DNA of 64,000 bases from a virus (lineage: Duplodnaviria; Caudoviricetes): positions 12,667 through 76,666 of the IMG/VR virus record IMGVR_UViG_3300037067_006298; one strand, 5' to 3'. Of this stretch, positions 41,317 to 58,352 are shown in pieces. The position numbers were made by a program, and so were the translations under genes. Within the stretch, counting starts at the first letter, position 1, and every line of letters begins with the position of its first letter. The notes under the pieces were generated by a model that saw only the letters and a program-made list of their open reading frames with translations, was not told the DNA's origin and made no database searches.

Positions 41317-41705
41317 TCCTTACATTTTACTAATGAAGTACTACTTAATACCATTACTCCGTGTTGATTATGTATGTTTATTCCAAGTTTTATCTGATTA
41401 AACTTTGGCATTTTATCCATTACTTGAGCCTCTATGGTTAACTCATCGTTCACATAGACAGGACTCAAAAAAGACATATTCTGTCTTACCCAAATTGCTC
41501 CATCTCCCGGCAAATGCATTCCTATCATTGTAGAAATAAAAGATGCCACTAACATACCGTGAACAATAGCATTTTCTCCAAAGTGTATAGAATTAGTATC
41601 GCCTGTAATTGCTACAAATGTATAGACGTCAGAGGCGTATATAGCAACTTTTTTGGACATTTTTTGTCCAATTTTAATTTCTTCGTACTTCATAGCATCC
41701 TCCAT
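41313..41705 (-). CDS. MaoC-like (R)-specific enoyl hydratase/dehydratase
   Basis: FVAITGDTNSIH, IVHGML, LPGDG hotdog-fold motifs. Confidence 0.85.
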   Translation of the reverse strand: MEDAMKYEEIKIGQKMSKKVAIYASDVYTFVAITGDTNSIHFGENAIVHGMLVASFISTMIGMHLPGDGAIWVRQNMSFLSPVYVNDELTIEAQVMDKMPKFNQIKLGINIHNQHGVMVLSSTSLVKCKE

Positions 41706-42646: not shown

Positions 42647-42650
42647 ATTA

Positions 42651-43160
42651 TTATTTTAAAAGTTCAATATTCTCATAAATATTACCAATAACAAACGGAG
42701 AATAAAATTTTTGAATATCCGAATCAAAACATCTCGATAAAAGTCCCCATCTATTAAATTTATTTTTACAATAAAATGCCCCGTCCTCAAAATAAACAGT
42801 CATCGGGCCATTTTCCTTAGACATTGCGATTAAAATATCCCCTTCGTATATTTCTTTGCCATTCTTGTCTTTCAACCCTGTAAATTCAACTACTTCGTAT
42901 TCGTCTGAATAATTAAGAGACCTTGTTGCTAAATCATCAATTGGAAGTAATCCAATTATTTGACCGTCAATAGTAAAAAATACACATTTGCCTTGAATGC
43001 GATTACATTCTTTACCGTCTTCGGAAAATTCAAATTTGTTATCAAAAAACTGGTTAGGTTTTCCATTAGTGTAAACTCCTTTCTGCCAATCATACGGATA
43101 TACTTTTAAGAAAGCTCCAGTTTCTTTATGCCATAATTTAAACCTATGTTCTCGTTTCAT
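42651..43160 (-). CDS. YopX-family phage protein
   Basis: EFTGLKDKNGKEIYEGDIL...VIGNIYENIELL. Confidence 0.85.
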   Translation of the reverse strand: MKREHRFKLWHKETGAFLKVYPYDWQKGVYTNGKPNQFFDNKFEFSEDGKECNRIQGKCVFFTIDGQIIGLLPIDDLATRSLNYSDEYEVVEFTGLKDKNGKEIYEGDILIAMSKENGPMTVYFEDGAFYCKNKFNRWGLLSRCFDSDIQKFYSPFVIGNIYENIELLK

Positions 43161-43861
43161 TTATGAAGTCCTCCAAGATAAATTGTTTGCGAAGTAATAT
43201 AACCTGATTTTTCTGAGCAAAAGAAGTCAATGACATTAGTTATGTCGTCAATGGTTGCTTTGCGTGGTATTGGGAATGTCTTAACTAACGCATCCACCGT
43301 CTCCGGCTTGTGTTGTGCAAGCATATCCGTATCAATAGCCGATATTGCAAGGGTGTTACAAGTTATGTTCTGACGTGCATACTCTTTTGCAAGGATATTT
43401 GTCATAGTTTTCAGTCCGGCTTTGCAAGCTGCATACACACTGTCTCCCATTGCCTCGCACACATCCGCAATTGAACCGATGTTTATTATTCTGCCATAAG
43501 GGATGTCGTACATGAGTTTTGATGCCTCCCTGCACACCAAAAACGGTGCGAGTAAATCCACCATTATCATTTGATATGCATCAAATCCAGGCATTTTCTG
43601 TGAGAATCTGGAAGACATAATGGCTGCATTGTTGATACAAATATCAATTTCTGAGGTAAGTGCTTTTATCTCAGAAAATACTTTTTCTATTTCTATTGGC
43701 ATTGATAAATTAACTGCATAATGACGATAATTTATGTCATCCTGAACTTCACTTCCACTTATGCCTATTACTTTTGCATTATGGGCAAGGAAATGTTCTG
43801 CAATACTTCTTCCAACACCTCTACTTGTTCCTGTTATTAAAACTGTTTTTTCGTTGTACAT
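43157..43861 (-). CDS. fabG: SDR oxidoreductase, 3-oxoacyl-ACP reductase-like
   Basis: TGTSRGVG, INNAA, YAACK. Confidence 0.85.
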   Translation of the reverse strand: MYNEKTVLITGTSRGVGRSIAEHFLAHNAKVIGISGSEVQDDINYRHYAVNLSMPIEIEKVFSEIKALTSEIDICINNAAIMSSRFSQKMPGFDAYQMIMVDLLAPFLVCREASKLMYDIPYGRIINIGSIADVCEAMGDSVYAACKAGLKTMTNILAKEYARQNITCNTLAISAIDTDMLAQHKPETVDALVKTFPIPRKATIDDITNVIDFFCSEKSGYITSQTIYLGGLHK

Positions 43862-43863
43862 AA

Positions 43864-44073
43864 TTATTGATTTAGAATATTTGGGAACACTGAAATTAAT
43901 TCACCTATTCTCGGATGGTTTTCAGGATACATCCATCCTTTCGGTAGTGGATTTTTTGCCCTGAACTCCCATTTGTTTTTTTCTTTTACAAGTTCTGTAA
44001 TAACTGATAAAAAAACTTCTTCCCTTTTTGTCTTTGCTTTCATGTCATTTGTATTTAATGGGAAATATTGCAT
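43864..44073 (-). CDS. Hypothetical protein
   Basis: Small ORF filling the gap in the operon; likely start MKAKTKRE. Confidence 0.45.
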   Translation of the reverse strand: MQYFPLNTNDMKAKTKREEVFLSVITELVKEKNKWEFRAKNPLPKGWMYPENHPRIGELISVFPNILNQ

Positions 44074-44665
44074 CTCCCGGCTCCACGTGAGGTGCTGAAT
44101 AAAAATTTGGTTTGCCCATATATATCCATTGTTCTGCTAAAAAACGATTAGTATGATTGAGTTCACTTATTGGAGGACATCTATTGATATACTCCCTTCG
44201 GAACCACCAGAAATTACCAGAGAAATGATTTGGGGACTTCAGATAACCAATGGAGGACACATCATAACCATTCTCTACCCTATCTCTATGTTCCTGATAG
44301 CGATTTATCAGTTGCTCATTCATCATTGATCTCCAATGATTTATAGGTACTTCAAATGGTCTGGTTACTGCTTTGGTGTGGAAATATAATCCTACATACT
44401 GTGAGTCATCTGCCTCGATTAGCCTGAGTGTAGGAAACTCGTAGTCCTCTGGTCTGTTTGAGTAATATTTGATTTTTAACTTCGGGTACACGTTAACAAA
44501 ATACTTTTCAAGAAAGGCTTTCTGGTCTGGCGCACCAATGCACCCAATGTTTATTTCCTCACATTCGTCATAAAGTCCTGACGTAAGTAATATGCGCATT
44601 TGATCTGTAATTACCGTGTACCAATGCGATACCATCCAAATATGCCAAAACACTTTTGCTGTCAT
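44045..44665 (-). CDS. Putative glycosyltransferase-like protein (viral family)
   Basis: LYFHTKAVT...HWRSMM...HFSGNFWW...AEQWI pattern, recalled from viral glycan clusters. Confidence 0.5.
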   Translation of the reverse strand: MTAKVFWHIWMVSHWYTVITDQMRILLTSGLYDECEEINIGCIGAPDQKAFLEKYFVNVYPKLKIKYYSNRPEDYEFPTLRLIEADDSQYVGLYFHTKAVTRPFEVPINHWRSMMNEQLINRYQEHRDRVENGYDVSSIGYLKSPNHFSGNFWWFRREYINRCPPISELNHTNRFLAEQWIYMGKPNFYSAPHVEPGDAIFPIKYK

Positions 44666-45354
44666 TTGTTTTCTTCTTTAAATGCTGGTTCTCCGTTCTG
44701 TGCCCTCTTTGCAAAGTCCTCCGGTCTGAGTGCAATTCTTTCGTCCTCCAAGCAACGAAGCATTTCGTCTTTCAGATAGGGATTTGAGTCTTGGTTGAGC
44801 ATTTCCAAAAGATTCTCTTCCAAATTATCCCTTAGTTCTGCAAGTTTAGAAATGCTTTTTGTTTCTCCTGACTGTATTTCGAGCATGAGATTGCAATAGG
44901 CAGTCTCAATACTGATTTGATATGCGTACTTGTACGACCTATGGAGCATAACATATTGGCAAATCTTCTGATTAACCACCTTATTTTTCCCCTTTAGAAA
45001 ATCTTCAACTACCGGTTCAAACACTCCTCCTCCTTCTACTTTGAAATCACAATCGTGTGCTACTTCAATTTTCCTCTTTAGTACATCAGAATATTTTCTG
45101 CGATATGGAGAATGAGCATCATACATACATAACACGTATTGCATCACCTTGGTATTGTCAAGACTTTCTCCCGGATTTGCTCTGAACTCTTTTATTTTTC
45201 CAAGGTCCTTGTAGAATTTAAGAATATCCGTACCGTCTGGTACTTTTGTCGGATCGAATCTCATTTGAGAATACTCCTTCGGATGGAACTGCCCTTTCAT
45301 AATATCCAATTTATATACGGTTTGCCTTCGTAATTTCTGTCCCATACAAACCAT
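44662..45354 (-). CDS. Possible terminase small subunit
   Basis: Helical protein with a YVLCMYDAHSPY motif at the head of the packaging operon; assignment mostly positional. Confidence 0.35.
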   Translation of the reverse strand: MVCMGQKLRRQTVYKLDIMKGQFHPKEYSQMRFDPTKVPDGTDILKFYKDLGKIKEFRANPGESLDNTKVMQYVLCMYDAHSPYRRKYSDVLKRKIEVAHDCDFKVEGGGVFEPVVEDFLKGKNKVVNQKICQYVMLHRSYKYAYQISIETAYCNLMLEIQSGETKSISKLAELRDNLEENLLEMLNQDSNPYLKDEMLRCLEDERIALRPEDFAKRAQNGEPAFKEENK

Positions 45355-45884
45355 GCAAACGGAATCATACCTCCGTTCTTGTGAGTGCCTGCATGTATCC
45401 CAAAATTTACACGCTTACTGAATTGATAAACGCATTTCAGGGGAAATTTCTTATCCTGAAACATCTCATATCTCTTTGCTCCTTCAAGGAAGGCGGTTTT
45501 CAGAAACATTGCTATTTTAATCTGAGAATATTGTTTTGCTTGAAAAACAAATTCCAATGCAAGGTCGAATGGAGGATTTGTTATTATGTTATCCACGGCA
45601 GGGAATGGTGCCGAAAATACTGAGTTATCATTTAAGAAATCTATATCCGGAACACCGTATCCATAGTTGTTAAGGTCCGAACTTTTGACATCATATCCTT
45701 GTTCAATAAGAACTTTTGATATATCTCCCATGCCACAGGCAGGTTCCCATACACTCCCCTCAAATTTTTCATGTAGCAATAATGCTTTTGTTGCACTTGG
45801 AGGTGTCGGATAAAAATCTGCCTTGGATCTTCCAAGCCGACTATTATCGCCTGCTATCTTTCTAGCTGTATCTACTGAACTCAT
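45297..45884 (-). CDS. Amino (N6A-type) DNA methyltransferase
   Basis: DFYPTP, WEPACGMG (motif I), IITNPPF (motif IV). Confidence 0.8.
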   Translation of the reverse strand: MSSVDTARKIAGDNSRLGRSKADFYPTPPSATKALLLHEKFEGSVWEPACGMGDISKVLIEQGYDVKSSDLNNYGYGVPDIDFLNDNSVFSAPFPAVDNIITNPPFDLALEFVFQAKQYSQIKIAMFLKTAFLEGAKRYEMFQDKKFPLKCVYQFSKRVNFGIHAGTHKNGGMIPFAWFVWDRNYEGKPYINWIL

Positions 45885-46582
45885 ATTTTGGCAAGTAAAT
45901 TGCGTCTCTGAACTCTGAATAACTTCACCCCGTTGTTGATCTTCTGATGCATATCGTATTGCAAAGGAATATCATGGGTCTTTCTGATGACCACTACATC
46001 ACCCACCGCTACATCAACACCCCTGTCGCTCTGAAATTCATCAACATAAGCTCTATTGGGTGTTCCAAGGTATTTTATCTTGCCGTACGTCACCTGATTG
46101 CTGATCTTCCGTCCCAGAACTACTAACTCCATTCCAAGTGCCTTCATTCGTTCTCTCTCACGTGTTATTGCGGGATCTTCAACCGGCTCAATCAGGCAAA
46201 ATCCATTTACAGGTATCACTTGCTCTCCACGTACTATTGCATACACGTTGTCATAACTCACGAAGATATACTTGTCCTCACCTTCCAGAATATACCTTTT
46301 GTTCCGTGGATTAAGTGCGTTGATAACGGATAAATAATACAAGATTACTTTGTCGTGCATCCTAAGTTCCATGTCGCATAACCACGGCATGTCAAGGTTT
46401 GGCTTACCAGAATATTTCAAGTGCGAAGGCAATCCCCATATCTCCCCTGTTACAACTGCGTTCTTCTCTGCTTCAAAAGTATTATCCAAATAAAGTTCAC
46501 AACCGTTCTTCAATTTTATTGAGGTATTGTCGGGATCAAGTTTGATAAAGACAAAATTATTTAAACAGACTTTTGGTTTCAT
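45881..46582 (-). CDS. GroES-like co-chaperonin with two repeats
   Basis: NNFVFIK...VVTGEI and PVNGFCLIEP...GKIKYLG...GDVVVI GroES-like repeats. Confidence 0.6.
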   Translation of the reverse strand: MKPKVCLNNFVFIKLDPDNTSIKLKNGCELYLDNTFEAEKNAVVTGEIWGLPSHLKYSGKPNLDMPWLCDMELRMHDKVILYYLSVINALNPRNKRYILEGEDKYIFVSYDNVYAIVRGEQVIPVNGFCLIEPVEDPAITRERERMKALGMELVVLGRKISNQVTYGKIKYLGTPNRAYVDEFQSDRGVDVAVGDVVVIRKTHDIPLQYDMHQKINNGVKLFRVQRRNLLAKI

Positions 46583-46941
46583 TGCTTGACCTCCTTCTTT
46601 TTATCTGCCATTTCCTGATAGTTTTTATTTTTAAGGCAGATAAGTTTTCCATTAATCTCCTCAAACCGAATATATCCTTTCTTTTCCAATACACGGTATC
46701 TTTCTGCCGTTGCTCTCTTGTCGGCACGACTACTAAATTTCCATGCAGGATATTCAATGGTCTTTTCTACATTGATGCGTTGTCCATGATAATGGATTAC
46801 CATGTAATTATCAAAAACCTGTTCTCCTTTTGTTCTTATGGGTTCTGCTTTCGGTGGTTTGGAAACTGGTTTCGTCCACAACCACAACTTAATCCATGCA
46901 AGGATATTCCGAATTGCCGTTAAAACTTTTTCTTTTGTCAT
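46579..46941 (-). CDS. Hypothetical protein
   Basis: First ORF of the long coupled operon. Confidence 0.55.
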   Translation of the reverse strand: MTKEKVLTAIRNILAWIKLWLWTKPVSKPPKAEPIRTKGEQVFDNYMVIHYHGQRINVEKTIEYPAWKFSSRADKRATAERYRVLEKKGYIRFEEINGKLICLKNKNYQEMADKKKEVKQ

Positions 46942-46968
46942 AGTCTGTCAAAATTAATTCTTAAAATT

Positions 46969-47065
46969 CAAAATAGCAAGCCCCAGGTAACACGTGCCCG
47001 GGGCGAACTAACTATGAAAAACAAGAAAACAGTTACCTGATCGGCGGTCAGGCGATTCAAAGGTA
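46969..47065 (-). promoter_or_regulatory. -7 promoter element plus structured leader of the late operon
   Basis: TACCTTTG at 47065-47058; hairpins CCTGA/TCAGG and GCCCCGG/CTGGGGC; alternative CAGGTAAC/GTTACCTG pairing. Confidence 0.55.
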
Positions 47066-47095
47066 ATCTATTTTTGTTTCTTATTTTCACAATAT

Positions 47096-47542
47096 TCAAT
47101 TTGATGAGTTTCTGTATCTGAATTTAGTAAAGTGAATAACTGCCATTGGTTCTTTGGGATAATTTTTAAACCAATCAATAAAATCTTCAATTGATAAACC
47201 ATCATTCTCTGCAATTTCTTTTGTTTTCACATCAGAATCAATATCATCAATGAACCAACCAAGCGGAGTTAATTCAATTTTTTGAATACCAACTTCATCT
47301 TTTAAGCAGGCAAATATTTCTCGTTGCTTACTTCTGTATGGCTTGTCTTCCCATTCTCTTAGGGATAATTTTGCAATTCCTTTATTCACTTCATCAATCC
47401 GTTTTTCCCATAGAGCATAATTTGCTCGAATAGTATGTTTCTTTTCATCCGTACAAAGATGTTCAATAAACTTAGTTTCTCTTCCTTTTTTGGGGTGAGT
47501 TGCCGGGAATACTTTAGAAACAATTATCACGTATGTTTTCAT
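47096..47542 (-). CDS. Conserved Bacteroidota-phage protein (possibly ASCH-like)
   Basis: SKVFPATHP...KKHTIR...LSLREW...KPYRSKQ...AENDGLSIEDFIDWF. Confidence 0.55.
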   Translation of the reverse strand: MKTYVIIVSKVFPATHPKKGRETKFIEHLCTDEKKHTIRANYALWEKRIDEVNKGIAKLSLREWEDKPYRSKQREIFACLKDEVGIQKIELTPLGWFIDDIDSDVKTKEIAENDGLSIEDFIDWFKNYPKEPMAVIHFTKFRYRNSSN

Positions 47543-47564
47543 GTTTTAAAAGTTAGGTTGGTTA

Positions 47565-47888
47565 TTATCCAAATACACTATCTTCGTTGTTTTGTTTTAA
47601 TGCCAATTTATTTTTATCCATAAAATCTCTCACGTCCCATATTGCAATAGGTTGAATCTGCAACGATCTTGCCCAGTGTCTTGCCACCTCTTCTGTTACT
47701 GGATTTATTGCATATACCGCACCGTGTCCAAGCAGTCTTGTAAATGGAGGGTTTTTGTCGGTTTCAGGAACATCTACCCTTAGCATGTTTGTTCCTGCAA
47801 TATTTTGTTCACTACATCTTCCGGCAATTTGACTGTGCCCAAATAATTCTACTATTGCCCATGATTCAAATTTTTCTGGTGTTTCCAT
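47565..47888 (-). CDS. Conserved phage hypothetical protein
   Basis: WAIVELFGHSQIAG...MLRVDVPE...AVYAINPVTEE. Confidence 0.6.
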   Translation of the reverse strand: METPEKFESWAIVELFGHSQIAGRCSEQNIAGTNMLRVDVPETDKNPPFTRLLGHGAVYAINPVTEEVARHWARSLQIQPIAIWDVRDFMDKNKLALKQNNEDSVFG

Positions 47889-47903
47889 TTTATAAATTTT
47901 AGG

Positions 47904-48314
47904 TTAGTTATTATCTTCCTCTGAATATTTGTCAAGAAAACTTAAATCTTCTTCGTTCTTGGGAACGTTTGCAAAATCTATATCATGATAACCTTTTGGA
48001 TTTTCTTCCTGAATTGGGATGTCAGATACTCCATCCGGTCTCATGTATGATATAAAATCACTTATTTGAGGTGGGTATTTATTGGTATCTATGATATGAT
48101 TGATCGTTTTTTCAAATTCTAAATCAGAAAACTTGTAAAACAACAATCTTTCGAGAAGTATATCATAAAAACCCTCAGATAGCATTGGATATACTATTTT
48201 TATTCTCGCAACATTAACGATAGTTCTTTCAGGTGTTAATATTGAAGTGTTTAGAGATAACTCTTGTGAGTCCTTCTTGACTAATTCCTGTTTGTTTCCT
48301 TTTTGAGTTTCCAT
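47904..48314 (-). CDS. G39P-like helicase loader/inhibitor
   Basis: IVYPML...HIIDTNKYPPQISDF, directly after the initiator. Confidence 0.55.
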   Translation of the reverse strand: METQKGNKQELVKKDSQELSLNTSILTPERTIVNVARIKIVYPMLSEGFYDILLERLLFYKFSDLEFEKTINHIIDTNKYPPQISDFISYMRPDGVSDIPIQEENPKGYHDIDFANVPKNEEDLSFLDKYSEEDNN

Positions 48315-49071
48315 TTTTGAAATATGTTTTAAGTTCGTTATATTTATTTGCGATTAAAGATAGGCTCATGTTTTCTCTTTTCCACTTATCATCAATATTC
48401 ACACAGGCATTAAAAATAATTCTTAGATCGTTTATTGTTTTTTCTTCATCTGAATCAGGTGAATTTACTTTGTACTCTTTAAGAATCATTCCTGTAAATT
48501 CTCTTTCCCTTTCCCTGTTTAATATTTTATAATCTCCATATTCCTGAACAAAGGTTTCAATTATCTGATCTAAAAAATCTGAATTTTCCCCCATGGATTT
48601 AATTCTTTCTTCTTCTTCATTCTTGTTATTCTTATCATTCTTGTTATTATCAGGGGGGGGATGGTTTTCGATTGGTTGCTCAATGGTTTCTTCTATGGTT
48701 TCTTCTGTGGTTGCTTCGTAGTTTTTTGGGTTCTGATAGTAATCATATTTACAGATAGTTATCATAACACCTCCAAGTTGCTTCACTGTGGTTATTCGTT
48801 TGGTGTCTCGTAAGAATTTCATAGCACTCTTCGTAGCATTTTCGTTGTAAGTCTCTTTTCTCCATCCTACAAACCACTTAGTTCCTTCTCTTATATCCTC
48901 ATAAGATCGAAACAATTGCCCTCTTTTAATTACATGTCCGTTATACTTATTCTCTTTTGAATTTGCCTCCCTAAGTAGGTATGCCCAAATTTCCCTTATA
49001 CACGGAGAAGCAACAGATATGTCACTTTCCTGAATGATGCGGGGTTGTAATATGTATCCTCCCTTAATCAT
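48229..49071 (-). CDS. Phage replication initiator (lambda O/replisome organiser-like)
   Basis: GGYILQPR...IWAYLLREAN...IKRGQL...MITICKYDYYQ wHTH block followed by a repeat-rich linker; likely start 49071. Confidence 0.75.
   Translation of the reverse strand: MIKGGYILQPRIIQESDISVASPCIREIWAYLLREANSKENKYNGHVIKRGQLFRSYEDIREGTKWFVGWRKETYNENATKSAMKFLRDTKRITTVKQLGGVMITICKYDYYQNPKNYEATTEETIEETIEQPIENHPPPDNNKNDKNNKNEEEERIKSMGENSDFLDQIIETFVQEYGDYKILNREREREFTGMILKEYKVNSPDSDEEKTINDLRIIFNACVNIDDKWKRENMSLSLIANKYNELKTYFKNGNSKRKQTGISQEGLTRVISKHFNINT
48601..48720. repeat. Iteron-like repeats, candidate replication origin inside the initiator gene
   Basis: TGGTT-cored repeats at 48662, 48673, 48684, 48696 and 48708 (11-12 bp period); TCATTCTTGTTATT x2; G8 run at 48653-48660. 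Confidence 0.6.
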
Positions 49072-49196
49072 TGTATGTTTACAAATAAAAGCCCCTTGAC
49101 AAAACAAAAAAACAGGTAGGATCTTGCGAGGGAACCTTTCCTGTTTATCGTCTGCCAAGGGGCAGTATCTACATTAAAATATAAATTCTTATTCAT
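49068..49196 (-). CDS. 42-aa leader ORF coupled to the initiator
   Basis: MNKNLYFNVDTAPW...VNIQ*; its TGA overlaps the initiator ATG; preceded by GCGAGGAA. Confidence 0.5.
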   Translation of the reverse strand: MNKNLYFNVDTAPWQTINRKGSLARSYLFFCFVKGLLFVNIQ

Positions 49197-49217
49197 TTCC
49201 TCGCTTTTAATACAGAA

Positions 49218-49248
49218 CAAATGTATAACTCTTTTTGAATAAATCAAA
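49218..49248 (-). promoter_or_regulatory. Bacteroidota-type promoter of the replication operon
   Basis: TTTG-N19-TACATTTG. Confidence 0.7.
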
Positions 49249-49289
49249 TTTTATTTTTTAAATAAAAAGAAGCAGTCGATGGTTAATAA

Positions 49290-49610
49290 TTACTTGAATC
49301 GTGCAAAAAACGTATCAATGGTCTTTCCTTCGTGCATGACGTAACAATCTGCACAGGGTAATATCCATAAAAGTTGCTTCGGCGTGTCACTTTCCCCGTA
49401 AATAAATACCCTTGACATTGAATATGTCTGTGTACTATTTGGGGTTTCTGGCAAGTCGCTGGAACCTATTACGGCATCGTTTGGTGTTAACGCAAACTTA
49501 GATTGATGATCACTACTTTCAGTTTCTTTGTGTTGGATTCTTTCACCATAAAATAGGTGCGTTTCGTGTTGACCGTCAATATCGGTCGTGATTACTTTTA
49601 ATGTTAACAT
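49290..49610 (-). CDS. Hypothetical protein
   Basis: 106 aa, flanked by 11-bp inverted repeats. Confidence 0.6.
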   Translation of the reverse strand: MLTLKVITTDIDGQHETHLFYGERIQHKETESSDHQSKFALTPNDAVIGSSDLPETPNSTQTYSMSRVFIYGESDTPKQLLWILPCADCYVMHEGKTIDTFFARFK

Positions 49611-49666
49611 GATTTCTAATTTTTAAGTTTCTACTAATACTGTTTCTATTTTCTGACTGCTTCTTA

Positions 49667-50533
49667 TTATATTTTATTTTTCATACAGAACTCGTCTATC
49701 CGATTAAAAAGTTCGATATCTTCATCGTGTAGTCTCATCCGAACACGAGCCATATTGCCCCTATCCGTCTTTGTTGTGCCCCAATAATGGGTGTATTTTC
49801 GCTTGAAATTCTGTCCTGCTTTTATCGCATCACGGTTAATAACCTTGACCTCTGATCTTAGATTATGCGCCTTAATAAGTGATGCAGCGAAGTATTGTTC
49901 GTGGAATAAGTTCTGGTGTATTATGACTGACCCGTACTTCTTAAAGAACAACTTTTGGTTCTCCGGTGCGAAGATATACTCCTCACTACACCTCCTCCAC
50001 TCCTGAAAGAACTCCAAGTCATGCCCTCCACAGATGCCACAGTTATATGCGAAGTCATGTATCGGATTATCAACAATAATTTGTGGTTTTACGGGTGCTT
50101 TATCGAAGCACGGACGGAGTAGGTTGTAGTAATGATACCCGACTTTATCCATCGGCTCCCAGCTCTGGAAGCACAACCGGGCTTTAAGTATCTTCGGAGC
50201 GAGTGCATCCCAAAGAAACACGTCATTGTCAATATGTACAAACGGTTCTTTTTGTTCACAGTAAGCGAGTAGTTTCCCGTATGCCCAAAAGAACCGGGAC
50301 ACGGATTTCATCTCGTTTAGCTTATTGGAATAACTTGTAATTGGAAGTCCAAGAGGTTTGATCACATCAACACCCCAATCAGAAGAAATAAACTGCACCT
50401 CCTTAAAGTGTCGGGAGGCGCAGAGTATTGAGAGTGCAGTGGTAAAAAGAAAATCACTGTATTTGTTGAACCCACATCTATTGCCGAAGTCTTCATCTGG
50501 GTTAAAATATGAGAGAACTGCTTTCTTTATCAT
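49667..50533 (-). CDS. DUF6734-like putative glycosyltransferase (GT-A)
   Basis: FWAYGKLLAYCEQKEPFVHIDNDVFLW (DxD), YNCGICGG, EQYF. Confidence 0.65.
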   Translation of the reverse strand: MIKKAVLSYFNPDEDFGNRCGFNKYSDFLFTTALSILCASRHFKEVQFISSDWGVDVIKPLGLPITSYSNKLNEMKSVSRFFWAYGKLLAYCEQKEPFVHIDNDVFLWDALAPKILKARLCFQSWEPMDKVGYHYYNLLRPCFDKAPVKPQIIVDNPIHDFAYNCGICGGHDLEFFQEWRRCSEEYIFAPENQKLFFKKYGSVIIHQNLFHEQYFAASLIKAHNLRSEVKVINRDAIKAGQNFKRKYTHYWGTTKTDRGNMARVRMRLHDEDIELFNRIDEFCMKNKI

Positions 50534-50554
50534 AGTTGCGATGGATTTATTTAA

Positions 50555-50782
50555 CTAAACCCACCCATGTCCAATTGCATCCCCATAAGAGGTGTAGTCG
50601 GTTGTTCCGGTACATAATATGGACTTGGCTGCTGCAAACCTCCAATTCCATTCACTGAGACTACAAGTGGTTACGCACTCGTGAATATTGTGCCATTGGT
50701 CTCCCTCTTTCGGCCCAGATGTAGCATTTTCTACATTTACTCGAGCGTTGAGTTTGATCCTGGCCTTTACATTTGTTGCCAT
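50555..50782 (-). CDS. 75-aa Cys/Trp/Thr-rich peptide
   Basis: Has its own promoter; first gene of a unit with the DUF6734-like enzyme. Confidence 0.55.
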   Translation of the reverse strand: MATNVKARIKLNARVNVENATSGPKEGDQWHNIHECVTTCSLSEWNWRFAAAKSILCTGTTDYTSYGDAIGHGWV

Positions 50783-50823
50783 GATAAAAAATTTAAGTTA
50801 AAGAACTATGATTATTACAAAGG

Positions 50824-50860
50824 CAAAGTTATGAAATGCTTTTCGATAAAGCAAAAGCAT
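50824..50860 (-). promoter_or_regulatory. Promoter with overlapping palindromic operator
   Basis: TTTG(50855-52)-N20-TAACTTTG(50831-24); ATGCTTTT-N9-AAAAGCAT at 50836-50860. Confidence 0.65.
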
Positions 50861-50868
50861 AATAAATG

Positions 50869-51444
50869 TCATGTATGTAAAATATTTCCATATTGTTCTG
50901 CTAAAGCGGCAGCTATGCCTGGATATGTTTTAGATCTTAGTTTTCGCCTATCAGGAGAGGGAGGCATTTTCCAGACACGATGTTCTCTGCCTTCAACTAT
51001 ATTAGTCGGTTTTAATAAAGGTAGTCCACAAAGCCAAAGCCATGTTTCTTTTGTTTCTCCGTGTCCGAATTGCCAAGGTTGAATAACCTGGGATTTTTTA
51101 CCGATATATCTTTGCATTATTGTTTTTGGTTGTTCAAGACAAACCATTTCACAAACATAACAAGCCTCCTGCCAGGCATCCTTGCAAAGTTGAATACCAT
51201 CTATCCTTAATTGACTATTCCAATACCAGCGATTACCGCAAATGGCAGTATAGGTACATGGCGGATGGAGTATAATTAAGTCCCATTCTTTCAATCGTAC
51301 TGCTCTGAAAAAATCCATTTTAAGATGCCATTCAGGATGACCCCCAGAACAATCTTCTAAGTCATTGGAATAAGCTTCATGTCCTTTATTTCTAAAGGCA
51401 ATACAAACGGCCTGACTTTCTTCAAATCCGATTAGAACTTTCAT
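50869..51444 (-). CDS. Short C5-cytosine methyltransferase-like protein
   Basis: DLIILHPPCT catalytic PC motif, LEQP, QPWQFGHGETK, RSKTYPGIA. Confidence 0.7.
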   Translation of the reverse strand: MKVLIGFEESQAVCIAFRNKGHEAYSNDLEDCSGGHPEWHLKMDFFRAVRLKEWDLIILHPPCTYTAICGNRWYWNSQLRIDGIQLCKDAWQEACYVCEMVCLEQPKTIMQRYIGKKSQVIQPWQFGHGETKETWLWLCGLPLLKPTNIVEGREHRVWKMPPSPDRRKLRSKTYPGIAAALAEQYGNILHT

Positions 51445-51860
51445 TCTTTCTTCCTTAATAACGCAAACACATCTTTGTTTTTATTGTCATCCAATGGCAG
51501 TAGTGCAATACCAAAGGTGTATGATCGTGGTTTTACCGAACCCGCCGGGTGTCCTTCTCCCTTGTTCCATGTTGCATCTATCACGTGTTGTGAAAGCCCT
51601 ACGTTATTAAACCCACACCGATCATGTGTAGTTCTTCGTAATTGCCATCCCTCAGTATCTTTAAACACCCCAAAATCAGCAGGGTGTTTGGGATCTCGGC
51701 AGAAATTAATAACGCAATACCCGGTTTTCTTATCGTGTAATTGCAGGTGTGTTATTGCAGCACGGTTGAACTCCACCAGTCCGGTAGAAGTAAATCTTAC
51801 TGATGGTTTCCTTCGCATGGAATCTAGAAAACTCTCTCCACTTAACTTTTCCATTTCCAT
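51441..51860 (-). CDS. Hypothetical protein
   Basis: 139-aa coupled ORF. Confidence 0.55.
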   Translation of the reverse strand: MEMEKLSGESFLDSMRRKPSVRFTSTGLVEFNRAAITHLQLHDKKTGYCVINFCRDPKHPADFGVFKDTEGWQLRRTTHDRCGFNNVGLSQHVIDATWNKGEGHPAGSVKPRSYTFGIALLPLDDNKNKDVFALLRKKE

Positions 51861-51863
51861 GGC

Positions 51864-52700
51864 TTATTCTGTTAAAAAAACATCAGAAGAGAATCCCGAG
51901 GCTCCCCTATGACCTCCACCACCACGGCTTTTGCATATTTCAGAACAATCAATAAGTCCGTTGTCATTGTATAGACTGTACATCCACTTCCCTTTCTGAT
52001 ACCAACAACATGCAAAACCATCATATCCGTCTTTATGATAATCAATGCCAAAATTGATAGGATTGAATCGTTCTTGGTTGACCATTGCAAATTTATAGGT
52101 ATCAAACATCACAGGGTATCTCTTTGCATAAGTCTGCCGTGCCTCGGTACACAGATATCTATAAATGGATACTCCCGCTTCATGAATTTCTTCAATTACG
52201 GGATTACGAAGCGAAGGAATTTCTTCTTGCATATAAAGAGACAAGTATTTAAACGCATCATCTGGATTTGAAATACGTTGTCTGGCACCATACTGAAATT
52301 GCAGTACTTTAAGTTCTTCGTCTGTTCCTTTGTGTCCAAAACAATCATAACGACCAAGTAATCGTACAATTTCTGGCATCGGTTTATCAGGAAAAAAGAA
52401 CTGCCATGTTAATTCACATGCAGCAAACTTATCGCCTCTAATACCGTTTGCTCTTAAATTAAGATTTTCTTTTATAGCAGATATATGATGATCTATCCAT
52501 ATAAGTTTAGTTCCATCATATTGATTCATAATATCCTTTGGAAAGGAAATATCAACCATTATAATAATTTCAGCATCAACAATACTGGGAATTGGTTGTC
52601 CATAGTCCCATCCGATGAGTTTTACATCAGGATATTTTAGTTTAACGATGGCAGCAGACATCCATCCATCTAAATCTCTTGAATGATAAATACAAATCAT
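51864..52700 (-). CDS. DHH/DHHA1 phosphoesterase
   Basis: YHSRDLDG, MVDISF, WIDHH, GGGGHRGASGF. Confidence 0.9.
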   Translation of the reverse strand: MICIYHSRDLDGWMSAAIVKLKYPDVKLIGWDYGQPIPSIVDAEIIIMVDISFPKDIMNQYDGTKLIWIDHHISAIKENLNLRANGIRGDKFAACELTWQFFFPDKPMPEIVRLLGRYDCFGHKGTDEELKVLQFQYGARQRISNPDDAFKYLSLYMQEEIPSLRNPVIEEIHEAGVSIYRYLCTEARQTYAKRYPVMFDTYKFAMVNQERFNPINFGIDYHKDGYDGFACCWYQKGKWMYSLYNDNGLIDCSEICKSRGGGGHRGASGFSSDVFLTE

Positions 52701-52710
52701 AGTTTTAAAT

Positions 52711-52935
52711 TTATTTGGTTAGTAATTCCATTAGTTTTTCTTCAAGCCATTGCACGTAATCCAAATCAGGATAATCCATAAATCCAGTTTCTTTTATGTC
52801 TCGCATCACTCTTGGTGGTAAGTCTGGATCGACTATAACATCGCCGAATCTTCCGATTCTCGCAAACACACTGGTTTCACAAGGTTTTTCTGCTGTTTCC
52901 GCTTTATACTTCATCTGCAACTCAGTTCTGTTCAT
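52711..52935 (-). CDS. Hypothetical protein
   Basis: 74-aa ORF in the operon. Confidence 0.55.
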   Translation of the reverse strand: MNRTELQMKYKAETAEKPCETSVFARIGRFGDVIVDPDLPPRVMRDIKETGFMDYPDLDYVQWLEEKLMELLTK

Positions 52936-52937
52936 GG

Positions 52938-53261
52938 TTATTCCAGTTTAGGAAGTATAGAACTTTGCTCAGAATCATAAATGCCACAATCCAAATCCGG
53001 CATAGCATCATTTTTGTCCGACGCCACGTTCTCAAGAGGGCCATCCACATTCACCACAGTTGGCTGCATCACCGTCATCTTCGGCATCACATCGCCCTTA
53101 ATCGTCTCAATAAGCCTGCTTCTTTCTCTTATCTGGTCTCCAGAAGCTCTTCTTATTATGTTTCCAGCATCATCCTTTGCCCCGCATCTCAGGTCTGTAT
53201 AGCATACCATCACATAACAGACCCCGTTTACATCAAATTTACACTTCTTCTCGTTTCCCAT
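52938..53261 (-). CDS. Hypothetical protein with Cys-rich N-terminus
   Basis: CKFDVNGVCYVMVCYTDLRC. Confidence 0.5.
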   Translation of the reverse strand: MGNEKKCKFDVNGVCYVMVCYTDLRCGAKDDAGNIIRRASGDQIRERSRLIETIKGDVMPKMTVMQPTVVNVDGPLENVASDKNDAMPDLDCGIYDSEQSSILPKLE

Positions 53262-53286
53262 AGTTTATCTATTATTAAATTAAACC

Positions 53287-53610
53287 TCAATAATCACTCC
53301 TTCCTTTTCCAGACAGGTACTTAACAAAGCTCTCCATGCCTCCCCTTCCCCTTCTCGTTATACTCTGACGGCCTTTCTCAATATCTCCCGTGTGTAACTT
53401 CATTATTACCACATCTTCGTTCTCGTAGTAGCTAAAGCCCTTCCTCGTGAATATGCCCATCAATAAACTCTCGCTTATCCCCGTCCTCTTACTCAATATC
53501 CTCTTATTGGTACATCCCCCTACCTTAATACGGTTATCCTTCTCTCCTAATTTCTTAAAATAGTAAACAAATAACTCCTTCCCCGTTAGTCTTATCCTCT
53601 CTTGTCCCAT
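53287..53610 (-). CDS. Hypothetical basic protein
   Basis: 107 aa; first gene of the leftward block. Confidence 0.5.
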   Translation of the reverse strand: MGQERIRLTGKELFVYYFKKLGEKDNRIKVGGCTNKRILSKRTGISESLLMGIFTRKGFSYYENEDVVIMKLHTGDIEKGRQSITRRGRGGMESFVKYLSGKGRSDY

Positions 53611-53993
53611 CTTTTTCCCGTACTTTTATCTTATTAAAAACTATTCTATGTCCACTAAATAGCAGATCGTATTTTGTCCTTTGTGTTCTATGTGCTGTAA
53701 AATTAAACCTTCTAATTCTAATTTCCTAATAAATTGTCTAATTTCTTCCCCAAAGGTAAGTGAGTATGTCCTTGCAGTCAATATACATATTTTACGATCG
53801 CCGGACAATTCCAAAATCGAAATCCCGAACCCGCCCCCCTATCTTTCATTTGCGGTCCTTTTTATGGTCCTGCCGAAAAGCGTTTTTCCCTCATCCCTGC
53901 AAATAAAGCGGTTTGCAGAACTGATCTGATAGGGTAGGGGATGAGTCATGTAACCCCAGATAACGAGCCTTTAAAATGCCTGTTTTACATTCT

Positions 53994-54021
53994 ATTTGAC
54001 ATAATAATAATTATAGGACGA
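53994..54021 (-). other. dif-like XerCD recombination site
   Basis: Minus strand TCGTCCTATAA-TTATTA-TTATGTCAAAT has the 11-6-11 layout; the XerD arm differs by one base from E. coli TTATGTTAAAT. Confidence 0.7.
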
Positions 54022-54035
54022 TTGGAGCTGGTTGT

Positions 54036-54124
54036 AATGAGTAAAAAAACTACTCATTTGCATAACCCTTTGAAACGCCCATGAATTGCGGATTTGATGC
54101 GATAATGAGTAAGTTTATTACTCA
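54036..54124. promoter_or_regulatory. Two palindromic boxes TGAGTA-N7-TACTCA
   Basis: AATGAGTA-N7-TACTCATT at 54036-54058 and TGAGTA-N7-TACTCA at 54106-54124. Confidence 0.6.
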
Positions 54125-54204
54125 ATTATATACTATAACATTATGTAAAACTAATTAGTTGTATTGTTATTTGATGTAATTTTGTGGTTTTAAGGCACTG
54201 ACGT

Positions 54205-54831
54205 TTGAAAATTTGGTTAAATGCTGTACATATGAGAACAAAAAACGCAAGCACAACGAGTTTAAGCGGGGTTTTTAGCCCTGATCTGTCCCTCTCCTCC
54301 TCTTCTCTTCCTTCTTTACCTAAGTCATTAAATAGCTTATATAATAATTTAGATACTTTTAATAAGGGTGTATTTGTTAAACTCTATCACTATTTATGGG
54401 GTCTTGTGAACTGGAAGACTATTAAACGGGGTGAATATGTTAGTTATTACTGGCTGTTGTATGGTCAGATGGTTCGGGCGGATCTCTCCCCTTATGCCTT
54501 TGCCCTACTGTCTTATATTTATTATATGACTGATCAGGGATCTAAGACTATACATTCAAATTTGATTTATTATAGTGGTGTTTTGCCTGGTTATAAAGCG
54601 TCATCTATTCAATGCATATTAACCAGGCTCGCAAGTTATGGATATATTACACGTCATACACGGGATTTAACAGGCTCCTGCCTTGCTGTGTCTCATGATC
54701 GACATCCTGTGTTTATTAAAATATCTCCTGAGGGGCTTAAATTGATTGAGGGGATGAGTAAGAATATTAACAGGTTATTGCTTAATACTTCTCTCAATGA
54801 TCTGACAGGGGCAAATAAAAAACCCGGCTAA
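54205..54831 (+). CDS. Winged-HTH (MarR-like) DNA-binding protein; start uncertain
   Basis: LSPYAFALLSYI...SIQCILTRLASYGYITRH...VFIKISPEGLKLI. Confidence 0.55.
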   Translation: MKIWLNAVHMRTKNASTTSLSGVFSPDLSLSSSSLPSLPKSLNSLYNNLDTFNKGVFVKLYHYLWGLVNWKTIKRGEYVSYYWLLYGQMVRADLSPYAFALLSYIYYMTDQGSKTIHSNLIYYSGVLPGYKASSIQCILTRLASYGYITRHTRDLTGSCLAVSHDRHPVFIKISPEGLKLIEGMSKNINRLLLNTSLNDLTGANKKPG

Positions 54832-54841
54832 TATTGCCGGG
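54817..54841 (-). terminator. Intrinsic terminator
   Basis: CCCGGC-AATATTA-GCCGGG followed by TTTTTT on the minus strand. Confidence 0.75.
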
Positions 54842-54925
54842 CTCCTGCGTTTCATTCTCTGTCCCAATCGCATCATAGTGGAATTGAAATTTACCGGGTA
54901 CTTGCTATTTTGCTCTTTTTCCATT
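54817..54925 (-). ncRNA. Candidate small RNA of about 105 nt
   Basis: Bounded by a consensus promoter (54930-54961) and a terminator; any ORF from ATG 54924 would run through the terminator. Confidence 0.55.
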
Positions 54926-54929
54926 ATGA

Positions 54930-54961
54930 CAAATTTAGGTTATAAATAATTAACAAACAAA
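54930..54961 (-). promoter_or_regulatory. Bacteroidota-type promoter
   Basis: TTTG-N20-TAAATTTG. Confidence 0.75.
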
Positions 54962-55016
54962 TCTTTTTTAAATTAGCAAAGGGCTTTGATGCCATCGCTG
55001 CCCCGACCTGCTAAGA

Positions 55017-55202
55017 TTAATGTGTCTGCATGTAGTTAACCTGCCATGCATAAAATTTTTGCTTATCTTCATAAGATAGATTATTCATTGCGCAGTTCAT
55101 TATCTTTGCTTTCGTTGCGCTTGTTTTTGCTTTTCTGTAGCGGTTTTTGTAATCATTTAAAGTTTTCATTTTCTTAGCAGTTAAATTAATTATTAAATTC
55201 AA
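55017..55202 (-). CDS. Hypothetical protein
   Basis: Small basic ORF. Confidence 0.5.
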   Translation of the reverse strand: MNLIINLTAKKMKTLNDYKNRYRKAKTSATKAKIMNCAMNNLSYEDKQKFYAWQVNYMQTH

Positions 55203-55413
55203 ATACTCTCAGTCCTGCGCCCTCTTCGCTCTCCTCGTTACTGTTGCTTAATATGAGGTGCTTTAACCTCCGAAAATGCGTTAAGGCTGCTATGTTCGTC
55301 TTATCTAACGGGGTGCGTCTTAAATTGACTCTTTGCGCCCTTATCTGATCAGTTACCAGATCAAGCAGTGTATTTGCCTGCTCGTTGCTTAGTATTATTA
55401 TATTTGCGCTCAT
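55186..55413 (-). CDS. Hypothetical protein
   Basis: 75-aa ORF. Confidence 0.55.
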   Translation of the reverse strand: MSANIIILSNEQANTLLDLVTDQIRAQRVNLRRTPLDKTNIAALTHFRRLKHLILSNSNEESEEGAGLRVFEFNN

Positions 55414-55424
55414 AACTCTTTGTT

Positions 55425-55538
55425 TTACAGGGTTAAGGCATTACAAGCCATCATAATAATAACTATAACGGCGCAGATCAATATAAAATTAATCCTTTGC
55501 GTCCGGTCCTCTCTTGTTGTTAACTGTGTGTTTTTCAT
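55425..55538 (-). CDS. 37-aa membrane peptide, possible lipoprotein
   Basis: MKNTQLTTREDRTQRINFILICAVIVIIMMACNALTL*; first ORF behind the promoter at 55583-55614. Confidence 0.5.
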   Translation of the reverse strand: MKNTQLTTREDRTQRINFILICAVIVIIMMACNALTL

Positions 55539-55582
55539 CTCTTTGCGTGTTTTTGGTTAAACATTTGATTAATTAATAAGTA

Positions 55583-55614
55583 CAAATTTACACCTTATAT
55601 TATATATAAACAAA
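55583..55614 (-). promoter_or_regulatory. Bacteroidota-type promoter
   Basis: TTTG-N20-TAAATTTG; shares the flanking AAAAAGATTTGTTT with the 54930 promoter. Confidence 0.75.
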
Positions 55615-55724
55615 TCTTTTAACATATTTATTTTACATTTTAGTTAAATATTTTTGTTAATTTATTTGTTTATGTCATTTGGATGGTGTTACTTTGTCTT
55701 GTTAACCAATAAAACACACATATT

Positions 55725-56114
55725 ATGACAGACTACAAAGCACAAGCGAACAAATTCGCACAGAAAAACGGGGTAAAGCTCTCATTTATTGGCGATCCTG
55801 AGTATAAAAAACATTTTGCAGACGACAAGCAATATAGATATGTTTTTAAATGCAAATTGACAAGGGGGCGCAAATCTTATACTTTCGATTTTGGGCAGTC
55901 TATTAATGTAGGGGCAGAGGCCCCCAATATGTATGATATTCTTGCCTGTATTCAAAAATATGACTGTGGTGACTTTGAAAATTTCTGTTCTGAATTTGGT
56001 TACGATGAGGACAGCCGGACAGCAGAACGCATTTACTTTGCAGTATGCAAAGAGTTTGCAGCCGTTGAGCGTCTGTTTTCTGATGTACTTGAAGAACTAC
56101 AGGAAATTAATTAA
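55725..56114 (+). CDS. Early hypothetical protein
   Basis: 129-aa first rightward ORF, phage-like composition. Confidence 0.65.
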   Translation: MTDYKAQANKFAQKNGVKLSFIGDPEYKKHFADDKQYRYVFKCKLTRGRKSYTFDFGQSINVGAEAPNMYDILACIQKYDCGDFENFCSEFGYDEDSRTAERIYFAVCKEFAAVERLFSDVLEELQEIN

Positions 56115-56195
56115 CTGGTGCTAAGCCATTGCGGAGAATGCCCGCAACCCTGCCGGACCTCTGGCGGGGCCGTTCAAACCAAAAAACACGCAAAA

Positions 56196-57242: not shown

Positions 57243-58352
57243 ATGAAAAAACTCGAAACAATTACGCCCGAACAAGAAGCGTTAATCCCCATTGTCAGGA
57301 AAGAATGGGAAGATTTGTTTTATAAAAGCGGGGGAATCATTGATAAACCACTCTTTGAAAAACAAATAGCATGGCTTTATAAAACTTGTCTGCAGAAAGA
57401 AGCTCCTTATATATGGTATTGCGAATCTCCATTAATGTGTCAATTAGTAATAAATATTCTCAATCTCAGGGACAATCTCGGGGACAATCTCAGGGACAAT
57501 CTCAGGGACAATCTCAGGGACAATCTCTGGGCCAATCTCGGGGCCAATCTCTGGGCCAATCTCGGGGACAATCTCGGGGACAATCTCGGGGCCAATCTCT
57601 GGGCCAATCTCGGGGACAATCTCGGGGACAATCTCAGGGACAATCTCAGGACCAATCTCGGGGCCAATCTCAAATTAGACTACAATCCTCCTTCTTTTTG
57701 GGGTAATATCTCAGATTATGGGTGGGTTGCATTTTATGATTATATTCAAAAACTTAATTATTTTGAATACGATTATGACGATTTTAATAATTTCAAAGCA
57801 TTATTAAGGTCAAAGGTTTATGATTTTATTGCCTTCCCTTCTGTTGTTTTTGTTTCTTCCTGCCCTTTTGAAGTACATCAAGAAACAAACAAAAGACTTC
57901 ATAATACTGAAGGTCCTGCAATAAGATTTAAAGATGGATATGACGTATATGCGATCCATGGGCGTATATTACCATCGTGGATATGGGAGAAGAAAGATAC
58001 AATAACAAAGGAAATGTTTATTGGTGAAAAAAACTCTGAGATAAGGGCTGCAATGTATTCGATACTTGGAGAAAAGAGGGTAATGGATATATTAGGAGTC
58101 ATTGAGATTGACAAAAAATTAGTTCAGCATCAAAATGACGAAATAGAAGTAATAAAACTTTTTAAGACAAAAGAACTTGTACAAATCACTGATAATTTGG
58201 CTAATTACTTGGCATGGGTTAAATTTACTTGCCCGTCTACCGGAACAGATTATCTTATTGCTTGTGAACCTCATTATACTGATGCAAAAGAGGCTGCTGC
58301 ATCATTAAGTATATTTAAAAAAGAAGAGTATTCATTTAATTTCAGAACTTAA
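57243..58352 (+). CDS. DUF6745-like protein with tetrapeptide repeats
   Basis: IWYCESPL N-block, NLxx repeats, RLHNTEGPAIRFKDGY...HGRILP, EKNSEIRAAM, CPSTG. Confidence 0.7.
   Translation: MKKLETITPEQEALIPIVRKEWEDLFYKSGGIIDKPLFEKQIAWLYKTCLQKEAPYIWYCESPLMCQLVINILNLRDNLGDNLRDNLRDNLRDNLWANLGANLWANLGDNLGDNLGANLWANLGDNLGDNLRDNLRTNLGANLKLDYNPPSFWGNISDYGWVAFYDYIQKLNYFEYDYDDFNNFKALLRSKVYDFIAFPSVVFVSSCPFEVHQETNKRLHNTEGPAIRFKDGYDVYAIHGRILPSWIWEKKDTITKEMFIGEKNSEIRAAMYSILGEKRVMDILGVIEIDKKLVQHQNDEIEVIKLFKTKELVQITDNLANYLAWVKFTCPSTGTDYLIACEPHYTDAKEAAASLSIFKKEEYSFNFRT
57461..57671 (+). repeat. 12-bp tandem repeat, 17 full units
   Basis: CAATCTC[A/G/T]GGG[A/C] consensus (one unit CAATCTCAGGAC), encoding NLRD/NLGD/NLWA/NLGA. 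Confidence 0.95.

Follow-up and report, generated by a model that had tools for sequence, protein, structure and literature searches.

A solitary CRISPR repeat beside a spacer-length segment in a strain-specific phage insert, with a possible role against host CRISPR immunity

The window analysed here is a stretch of 64,000 nucleotides (bases 12667-76666) of the complete 76,666-bp IMG/VR virus record IMGVR_UViG_3300037067_006298, which has 127-bp terminal repeats. A preliminary description of this window had proposed a small RNA on the minus strand at 54817-54961, acting in trans on the leader of the late operon in the manner of the phage RNAs P1 C4 and P4 CI. We examined this locus, in which an insert of about 128 bp lies behind the gene of a probable winged-helix (wHTH) regulator and contains a single CRISPR repeat, a spacer-length segment and a promoter, P1 (together referred to as the cassette; Table 1). 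The insert most likely serves to block the CRISPR immunity of the host or to borrow it, and is less likely to be a classical late-gene regulator.

Promoter, terminator and boundaries of the insert

The nearest relatives of the phage TerL protein belong to Flavobacterium, Cellulophaga and Maribacter phages (28-32% identity; Flavobacteriia phages), a relative of the wHTH regulator gene was found in a metagenome-assembled genome (MAG) of Prolixibacteraceae (Bacteroidota), and no Shine-Dalgarno motifs were seen at the phage genes. Promoters were therefore expected to be of the Bacteroidota type, with a -33 TTTG and a -7 TAnnTTTG. The phage is crAss-like, and these features fit a host in Bacteroidota, a phylum compatible with the repeat family described below. 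Read on the minus strand from 54961 to 54930, P1 has the form TTTG-N20-TAAATTTG, which is of this -33/-7 type and not a sigma-70 promoter. The consensus promoter claimed previously is indeed present. The 76.7-kb genome has 8 full matches to the consensus, P1 among them, where Markov shuffles give 2.9 +/- 1.7, and P1 is the only recognisable promoter of the cassette. An extended form, ATTTGTTT...TTTGT, occurs at just three sites of the genome: P1 and, at 55583-55697, the two divergent promoters P2 and PR; the P2-type -33 block is also present in the relatives L006 and L009-L011.

The U-tailed terminator was likewise found as described. Its hairpin is kept, with altered, compensatory sequence, in the relatives L003, L006/L007, L009 and L025, and it is older than the insert; read in the plus direction, the hairpin has no U tract. 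A scan for sigma-70 promoters listed neither P1 nor the terminator, and a consensus scan missed the latter, probably because an extension of the stem swallows the T run. Between P1 and the terminator lies an ORF (open reading frame)-free transcription unit body of about 77 nt.

The boundaries of the insert are clear from L006 and L007. The flanking proteins that they share with the window are 93-100% identical, yet the insert is absent, and the regulator gene and terminator run directly into the sequence that corresponds to the window from 54976 onward. The insert comprises 13 nt, the repeat, the 35-nt spacer-length segment and P1, and spans compactly from the -33 box of P1 up to the terminator stem. 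It is also absent from L003, L009-L011 and L025. A 78-kb contig from another sample (L026) is identical to the window across 36579-56150, insert included, so the insert is not an assembly artefact. The cassette is known solely as these identical copies (window and L026).

The slot between the terminator and P2 (54832-55620) carries different small minus-strand genes in each phage; the sets seen among the window, L003, L006, L009 and L025 code for 61 + 75, 99 + 75, 58 + 55, 165 and 115 aa, in no stated order. None of this cargo belongs to a known family in PHROG, Pfam or PADLOC, and the slot looks like an accessory or anti-defence hotspot. Because the cassette is absent from near-identical relatives and sits in a variable-cargo slot, it is, as far as its distribution indicates, an accessory element and not a core late-gene regulator. 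Conservation of its match among relatives was not observed: the late junction is kept without the cassette in L003, L009 and L016, the relatives whose junction was readable.

The solitary repeat and its spacer-length neighbour

A 49-aa minus-strand ORF over the cassette was searched by phmmer against 1.84 billion representative proteins. Four matches were obtained, three of them translated CRISPR arrays and one another repeat-built sequence. The DNA of two matched proteins (L032 and L033) contains two arrays, one of 25 and one of 17 repeats, of 30 nt each and with a period of 64-67. When the phage genome was scanned with these real array repeats, 54861-54890 scored 26/30 (L033) and 24/30 (L032), and the next best site 19/30. 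The same 30 nt are 25/30 identical to the repeat of genome G219 and 23/30 to that of G548, which also occurs in G482 and G538. The cassette repeat and the L032/L033 repeats are predicted to form the same outer stem, with weak energies of -4.4 to -5.7 kcal/mol (z about -1; the P1 strand was folded). No second copy was found at 19/30 or better in the phage genome, the flanks reach at most 13/30 by eye, and the relatives have none.

Of 251 genomes sampled from the phylum to which G001 belongs, the likely host phylum, six match this repeat family, and four of these six carry arrays of 12-72 copies. Two arrays of G219 flank genes for Cas6, a Cas2-domain protein and Cas10-Csm2-Csm3-Csm4-Csm5 (type III-A), whereas the array of G482 follows Cas6...Cas3...Cas1 (type I-B-like) and that of G548 follows Cas1. 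The family was not found in G001 or G402, the exact cassette repeat was absent at up to 3 mismatches from 401 genomes, and the repeat sequence was not found by a word search of the literature. No Cas6 or RAMP-family genes were found in the complete 76.7-kb phage record, in which other cas families were not searched. From these sequence comparisons we conclude that 54861-54890 is a lone CRISPR repeat of a Cas6-processed family that is associated with type I-B-like and III-A loci in Bacteroidota.

The orientation of the repeat was drawn from G482, G548, L032, L042 and array 2 of G219. In G482 and G548, the array follows cas1 and shares its strand. Degenerate repeats were observed at the far end in G482, G538, L032 and array 2 of G219 (4 of the 5 arrays with an identifiable degenerate end), the evidence being mixed for array 1 of G219. 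The conserved end of the repeat family reads ...ATTGAAAC or ...GGAATTGAAAC, and such a conserved end is the usual 8-nt tag of Cas6 systems. Since the cas1-array order, the degenerate ends and the conserved repeat end agree, the CRISPR RNA (crRNA)-sense strand is taken to end in ATTGAAA(C/T); as inferred from these other genomes, it would be the plus strand in the phage. P1 drives the minus strand, and its RNA would therefore be an anti-repeat. The crRNA-sense strand has no promoter inside the cassette, and solely read-through from the wHTH gene would reach the repeat. Its order is regulator gene, hairpin without U tract, 19 nt, repeat and guide-like segment.

Given the 30-nt repeats and the period of 64-67, spacers of the arrays measure 34-37 nt, so that the 35-nt segment adjoining the cassette repeat has a normal spacer length. 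It was previously reported that plus-strand 54891-54912 matches the minus strand of 46969-46990 at 19/22 positions without gaps. The sequences are exactly as quoted, and one of the three mismatched positions forms a G-U pair when read as RNA pairing. The match begins at the first base beside the repeat, that is, at guide position 1 on the plus strand; in this numbering, mismatches fall at positions 6, 9 and 10, positions 1-5 and 7-8 match, and 6/13 positions match over 23-35. A second, collinear 7-nt match, TCATAGT, is real at both sites (54873-54879 and 47011-47017), but the former copy is simply part of the CRISPR repeat.

Within the whole genome, the late junction is the top non-self site for an ungapped helix with the 77-nt body, scoring 41 where the runner-up scores 33. 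A score of 41 is, however, attained somewhere in the genome by 39 of 300 dinucleotide shuffles (P about 0.13), and RNAduplex ranks the late leader about 9th. Cofolding gave a free-energy difference (ddG) of -9.7 against -5.8 +/- 2.5 in shuffles, 16 of 200 of which were equally good. The chance of a placement flush with the repeat is about 1 in 64, and the joint probability with 0.13 is roughly 0.002. The 22-nt complementarity is thus marginal by itself genome-wide, and it is unlikely to be accidental once the flush position is counted. It is best read as a putative spacer-protospacer relation.

The best matches of the segment are its own junction and the junction of L016, each with 19/22 and then 6/13. 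No phage with a perfect protospacer was found in IMG/VR (two sub-patterns) or in genome contigs. Pattern scans of IMG/VR gave no match for the 22-mer, for the junction architecture or for the distal part of the spacer, and a scan of genome contigs for the segment gave 6 matches, which is about the chance expectation. The best match outside, 25/26 to the start of the segment at L024:7912-7937 (G402:C26:15912-15937), lies within an ordinary 380-aa chromosomal ORF, assigned to no known family, of a Flavobacteriales MAG without repeats of the repeat family and is probably due to chance (roughly 0.03). We also considered and rejected the insert as an inverted partial copy of the junction, for which a gapped chain scored 37 (reached by 10 of 1000 shuffles), but several unrelated tiles of the genome score higher. 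The 35-nt segment as a captured CRISPR leader gained no support, with no similarity to the leaders of four array ends.

The late junction itself follows a plan common to several phages. It opens with the -7 box TAYCTTTG, followed by hairpin 1 and its U tract, then TTTTTCATAGT and hairpin 2; another -7 box comes last, at 3-7 nt from the ATG. In L016 (1344-1481), 138 nt are kept at 97.8% identity, next to a protein that is 65% identical and an upstream gene that is unrelated; L003 (2571-2700) and L009 (2149-2300) retain the plan with different stem sequences. The -7 box (TAATTTTG or TAAATTTG) located 3-7 nt ahead of the first late ATG is conserved in four phage types. Late mRNAs that start at the second -7 box would not contain the target, because it lies upstream of the PL2 start. 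Possibly the late-junction element is itself a leader or the gene of a small RNA. In the genome of L009 (G001), no other copy of its own junction 22-mer was found at up to 3 mismatches, and no outlier emerged when the 20.6-kb loci of L003 and L009 were scanned for antisense matches.

Table 1. Coordinates of the cassette, the late junction and neighbouring features (positions in the window)
Feature	Position	Strand	Remarks
Insert, ~128 bp	54848-54975		stands in place of TTTTTG of L006/L007 (alignment)
Solitary CRISPR repeat	54861-54890	+ (putative crRNA sense)	plus strand reads GTCCCAAT...GGAATTGAAAT
Spacer-length segment, 35 nt	54891-54925		flush with repeat; reaches expected P1 start
P1 promoter, Bacteroidota type	54930-54961	-	-33 TTTG 54958-54961, -7 TAAATTTG 54930-54937; start expected near 54925
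Intrinsic terminator	54817-54843	-	11-pair stem + U6 (predicted fold); overlaps last wHTH codons
Probable wHTH regulator gene	54232-54831	+	solitary repeat begins 29 nt after stop
Hairpin-like module	54976-55016	-	directly after 50/61-aa cargo gene; right edge of insert; shared with L006
P2 promoter	55583-55614	-	extended motif common to P1
PR promoter	55664-55697	+	extended motif common to P1
Late-junction element	46942-47065	-	conserved; two -7 boxes, two hairpins
First -7 box TACCTTTG	47058-47065	-	late junction
Hairpin 1 + U tract	47035-47053	-	late junction
CATAGT	47011-47016	-	late junction
Hairpin 2	46980-47004	-	late junction
Matched site	46969-46990	-	hairpin 2 3' arm (46980-46987) + CTTGCTATTTTG, including PL2 -33 TTG (46977-46979)
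PL2 -7 box TAATTTTG	46949-46956	-	7 nt before ATG at 46941

Possible roles of the cassette

Among the roles considered, we tentatively favour that of the P1 RNA as an RNA anti-CRISPR, which we hold to be possible though somewhat short of probable. An insertion of about 128 bp would have placed the repeat in the cargo slot together with its spacer-length neighbour and a strong promoter of host type, against the pre-existing terminator. The product most surely made would be the P1 RNA, roughly 105-110 nt from the minus strand, which would carry the reverse complement of the spacer and repeat. We took the minus-strand RNA as the selected product because the slot cargo is all on the minus strand, P1 is the only promoter and the terminator is shared. 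Such an RNA might pair with the repeats of host pre-crRNA or crRNA, covering the Cas6 cleavage site and the 8-nt tag, or it might act as a decoy that binds Cas6, the repeat being partly palindromic. The 22-nt likeness to the late junction would then be the trace of a spacer-protospacer relation, the unit descending from an array spacer that was taken from this phage group.

Several observations weigh against an RNA anti-CRISPR of this kind. Its main weakness is that no precedent was found for an antisense-repeat anti-CRISPR, and P1, although it lies 35 nt from the repeat and thus inside the 250 bp allowed for the promoter of a solitary repeat unit, drives the strand antisense to the repeat. 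The repeat is only 23-26/30 identical to the sampled repeats (4-7 positions off every one), and Rfam at gathering-free thresholds returned terminator look-alikes only, with no matching CRISPR-DR family. None of the spacers from the retrieved arrays has a match in the phage, and the small ORFs adjoining the cassette belong to no recognised anti-CRISPR (Acr) or defence family. Both the putative repeat family and its orientation were derived from a few sampled arrays of other genomes.

Comparison with known systems gave partial parallels. The tracrRNA is a host-encoded RNA of type II systems that is needed for crRNA maturation. The P1 RNA would resemble it as an RNA with a repeat complement that could form a duplex with pre-crRNA repeats, but the cassette anti-repeat is phage-borne, faces Cas6-type systems and would inhibit if acting at all. 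Solitary CRISPR repeats are numerous in viruses (2,103 in one survey); few have been tested, none of type I-B or III. Viral solitary repeat units are described as often following closely on a promoter, unaccompanied by cas genes but with anti-defence genes nearby, and the validated RNA anti-CRISPRs (Racrs) were described as repeat mimics (PMC10651486). Like RacrIF1 and other solitary repeat units (Camara-Wilpert et al. 2023, PMC10651486), the cassette has a single repeat look-alike in an intergenic, accessory locus, with a promoter tens of bases away and an expected product of small-RNA size, in a phage where neither Cas6 nor RAMP genes were found. It differs in its repeat family (I-B/III-A, whereas the tested Racrs are I-F, I-E, I-C and V-A), in an adjoining segment that matches its own phage genome and in being known from sequence alone. 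A further difference counts against the RNA anti-CRISPR as well: RNA from the cassette promoter would carry the repeat as its reverse complement relative to crRNA, whereas validated Racrs are described as mimics of the repeat.

The Cracr and CreA-CreR systems (bioRxiv 10.1101/2024.10.29.618823) are phage-borne like the cassette and resemble it in a putative guide whose complementarity is confined to the part proximal to the protospacer-adjacent motif (PAM), which would let a Cas effector bind without cutting. However, these are described as mini-arrays and match host cas or toxin promoters, and Cracrs have two (pseudo)repeats flanking a pseudo-spacer, whereas the cassette contains one repeat only and matches its own late junction. 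The Cracr survey listed no Bacteroidota (bioRxiv 10.1101/2024.10.29.618823). As far as they are described in PMC10651486 (its ref. 14), virus-borne mini-CRISPR arrays of interviral conflict are similar in that a repeat is accompanied by a spacer-like segment related to the own lineage, and in that the carrier differs from the perfect target; the cassette differs from them in its single repeat, its opposite-strand promoter and the lack of any sibling found with a perfect protospacer.

On the plus strand, the cassette could instead give a crRNA with one guide. The wHTH transcript would read through the hairpin into the sense repeat, and host Cas6 would cut 8 nt before the repeat end, leaving the tag AUUGAAAU and a guide that starts with the 22-mer, with the P1 antisense RNA as antagonist. 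This crRNA would steer host type I-B Cascade or III-A Csm to the late-junction sequence, either in an attack on sibling phages with a perfect match (a mini-array weapon) or in binding to the own, partly matching junction without cleavage (repression of the CreA/Cracr kind). Guide positions 1-5 and 7-8 form the seed in type I systems, and these are the positions that match next to the repeat on the plus (sense) strand, from guide position 1 on; positions 6, 9 and 10 are mismatched, and the 13 nt at the distal end do not match. The terminator hairpin without a U tract in this direction, the overlap of the target with the -33 of PL2, and the precedents of viral repeat-spacer units (PMC10651486) and crRNA-like repressors (bioRxiv 10.1101/2024.10.29.618823) also speak for such a guide. 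Nevertheless, we consider it rather unlikely: the cassette has no promoter in plus orientation and is crossed by convergent P1 and P2 transcription, the slot cargo lies entirely on the minus strand, the searches revealed no phage carrying a perfect protospacer, and a type III target RNA would be antisense of the late transcript. The specific form in which a wHTH-cotranscribed one-repeat crRNA parks host I-B Cascade uncut on the late junction (PL2 -33 and hairpin 2), to be released by the P1 RNA, appears highly improbable; if true, it would mean that the phage uses a host CRISPR effector as a late-gene repressor with an RNA off-switch.

A non-functional relic is another explanation. A host array fragment of repeat and spacer might have entered by recombination, perhaps via the spacer-protospacer homology, and might persist by drift beside a promoter left from a lost cargo gene. 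The strain-specific occurrence as identical copies only, the slot as a recombination hotspot with reused junction modules, the 4-7 deviating positions of the repeat and a gapped insert-junction similarity that is not exceptional genome-wide are all in line with this. On the other hand, the insert is compact and complete from the -33 box to the terminator stem, P1 is among the best promoters in the genome, and phage genomes generally shed junk quickly, so that we judge a relic unlikely. The original proposal of a CRISPR-independent antisense RNA, which would pair in trans with late-junction RNA and alter termination or translation of the late operon, now appears quite improbable. It was correct that a compact promoter-terminator unit without a conserved ORF exists, that its match to the late leader is probably not due to chance, and that the conserved and structured junction is its top ungapped complement; cofolding even predicts invasion of hairpin 2. 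However, the body of this unit is a CRISPR repeat with a spacer-length segment and is explained by a CRISPR origin, the complementarity has a genome-wide P of about 0.13, the cassette is absent from near-identical relatives, and the L009 genome and the 20.6-kb L003 locus contain no antisense copy of their own junction. Moreover, an RNA that pairs with the 3' arm would hardly forestall the hairpin, and the conserved PL2 start is located downstream of the target; antitermination by occlusion of the 3' arm, as suggested earlier, would be a poor way to prevent termination, as the 5' arm is made first. P1 C4 and P4 CI are core conserved immunity elements that are processed from the operon they control. 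The likeness to these RNAs (a short phage RNA complementary to a leader with terminator-like hairpins) did not extend further, since the cassette is a strain-specific insert, apparently CRISPR-derived, 8 kb from its match and absent from L006/L007 and four more distant relatives. A small protein from the 49-codon ORF at 54775-54924 (minus) is barely credible and was rejected: its ATG lies 5 nt after the -7 box, but the reading frame continues past the terminator and into sequence antisense to the wHTH gene, is conserved only where it overlaps that gene, and has database matches that are all repeat-built.

Two features of the cassette are unusual, namely a promoter facing the anti-repeat strand and a spacer-like segment that points to the conserved late junction of the very phage that carries it. 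Metagenome samples with neighbouring accession numbers yielded assemblies of natural variants that have the cassette and of others that lack it, which provide a ready pair with clean boundaries. In addition, this case illustrates that a small RNA with a seed beside a hairpin can be a CRISPR fragment, which was exposed by translating a non-coding stretch and searching proteins.

Neighbouring genes and other observations

Genes on the minus strand are arranged in the order of replication genes (53610 down to 47096), a 154-nt gap, a methyltransferase gene, acyl/glycan genes, TerL, portal and the remaining genes. Among GenBank phages, DNA searches for near and for distant similarity gave no match for either locus. 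At the right edge of the insert, the hairpin-like module of 54976-55016 was also found in L030 (300-385) and L031 (300-386), where it leads into a promoter and a methyltransferase gene; there, the U-rich tail of the module also serves as -33 box in the promoter that drives this gene. The module looks like a junction for module exchange. A linkage of the cassette to the 50/61-aa gene was rejected, as this gene precedes the promoter and methyltransferase gene in L030/L031 instead. Directly after P2, a 37-codon ORF with a hydrophobic stretch (55425-55538, minus) is conserved in L003/L004 (37 aa called); it falls below the 40-aa limit of the ORF list.

The wHTH regulator has 17 protein homologues, two of which were named MarR-family by JGI; profile matches to wHTH are weak and located at residues about 107-177, and no Pfam, PHROG or PADLOC family was assigned. 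Upstream of its gene we observed two perfect TGAGTA-N7-TACTCA palindromes (54038-54056 and 54106-54124), 68 bp apart, which are likely operators of the wHTH gene. A shared operator was rejected, as perfect copies occur in the window only at this place and not at P1, P2, PR or the junction. Upstream of the regulator gene, the 600-nt non-coding region where the coding strand switches includes a G+C-rich stretch of ~190 nt (53790-53980) without an Rfam match. Elsewhere in the window, ~24 tandem 12-nt units were noticed at 57425-57707, within a 369-aa gene (57243-58352). Finally, the 216-kb metagenome contig C687J13896_1000012 contains three copies of a related gene (L012-L014) spaced by 72,083 bp, which is consistent with three head-to-tail related phage genomes of ~72 kb (a concatemer, or the assembly of a circular or terminally redundant genome).

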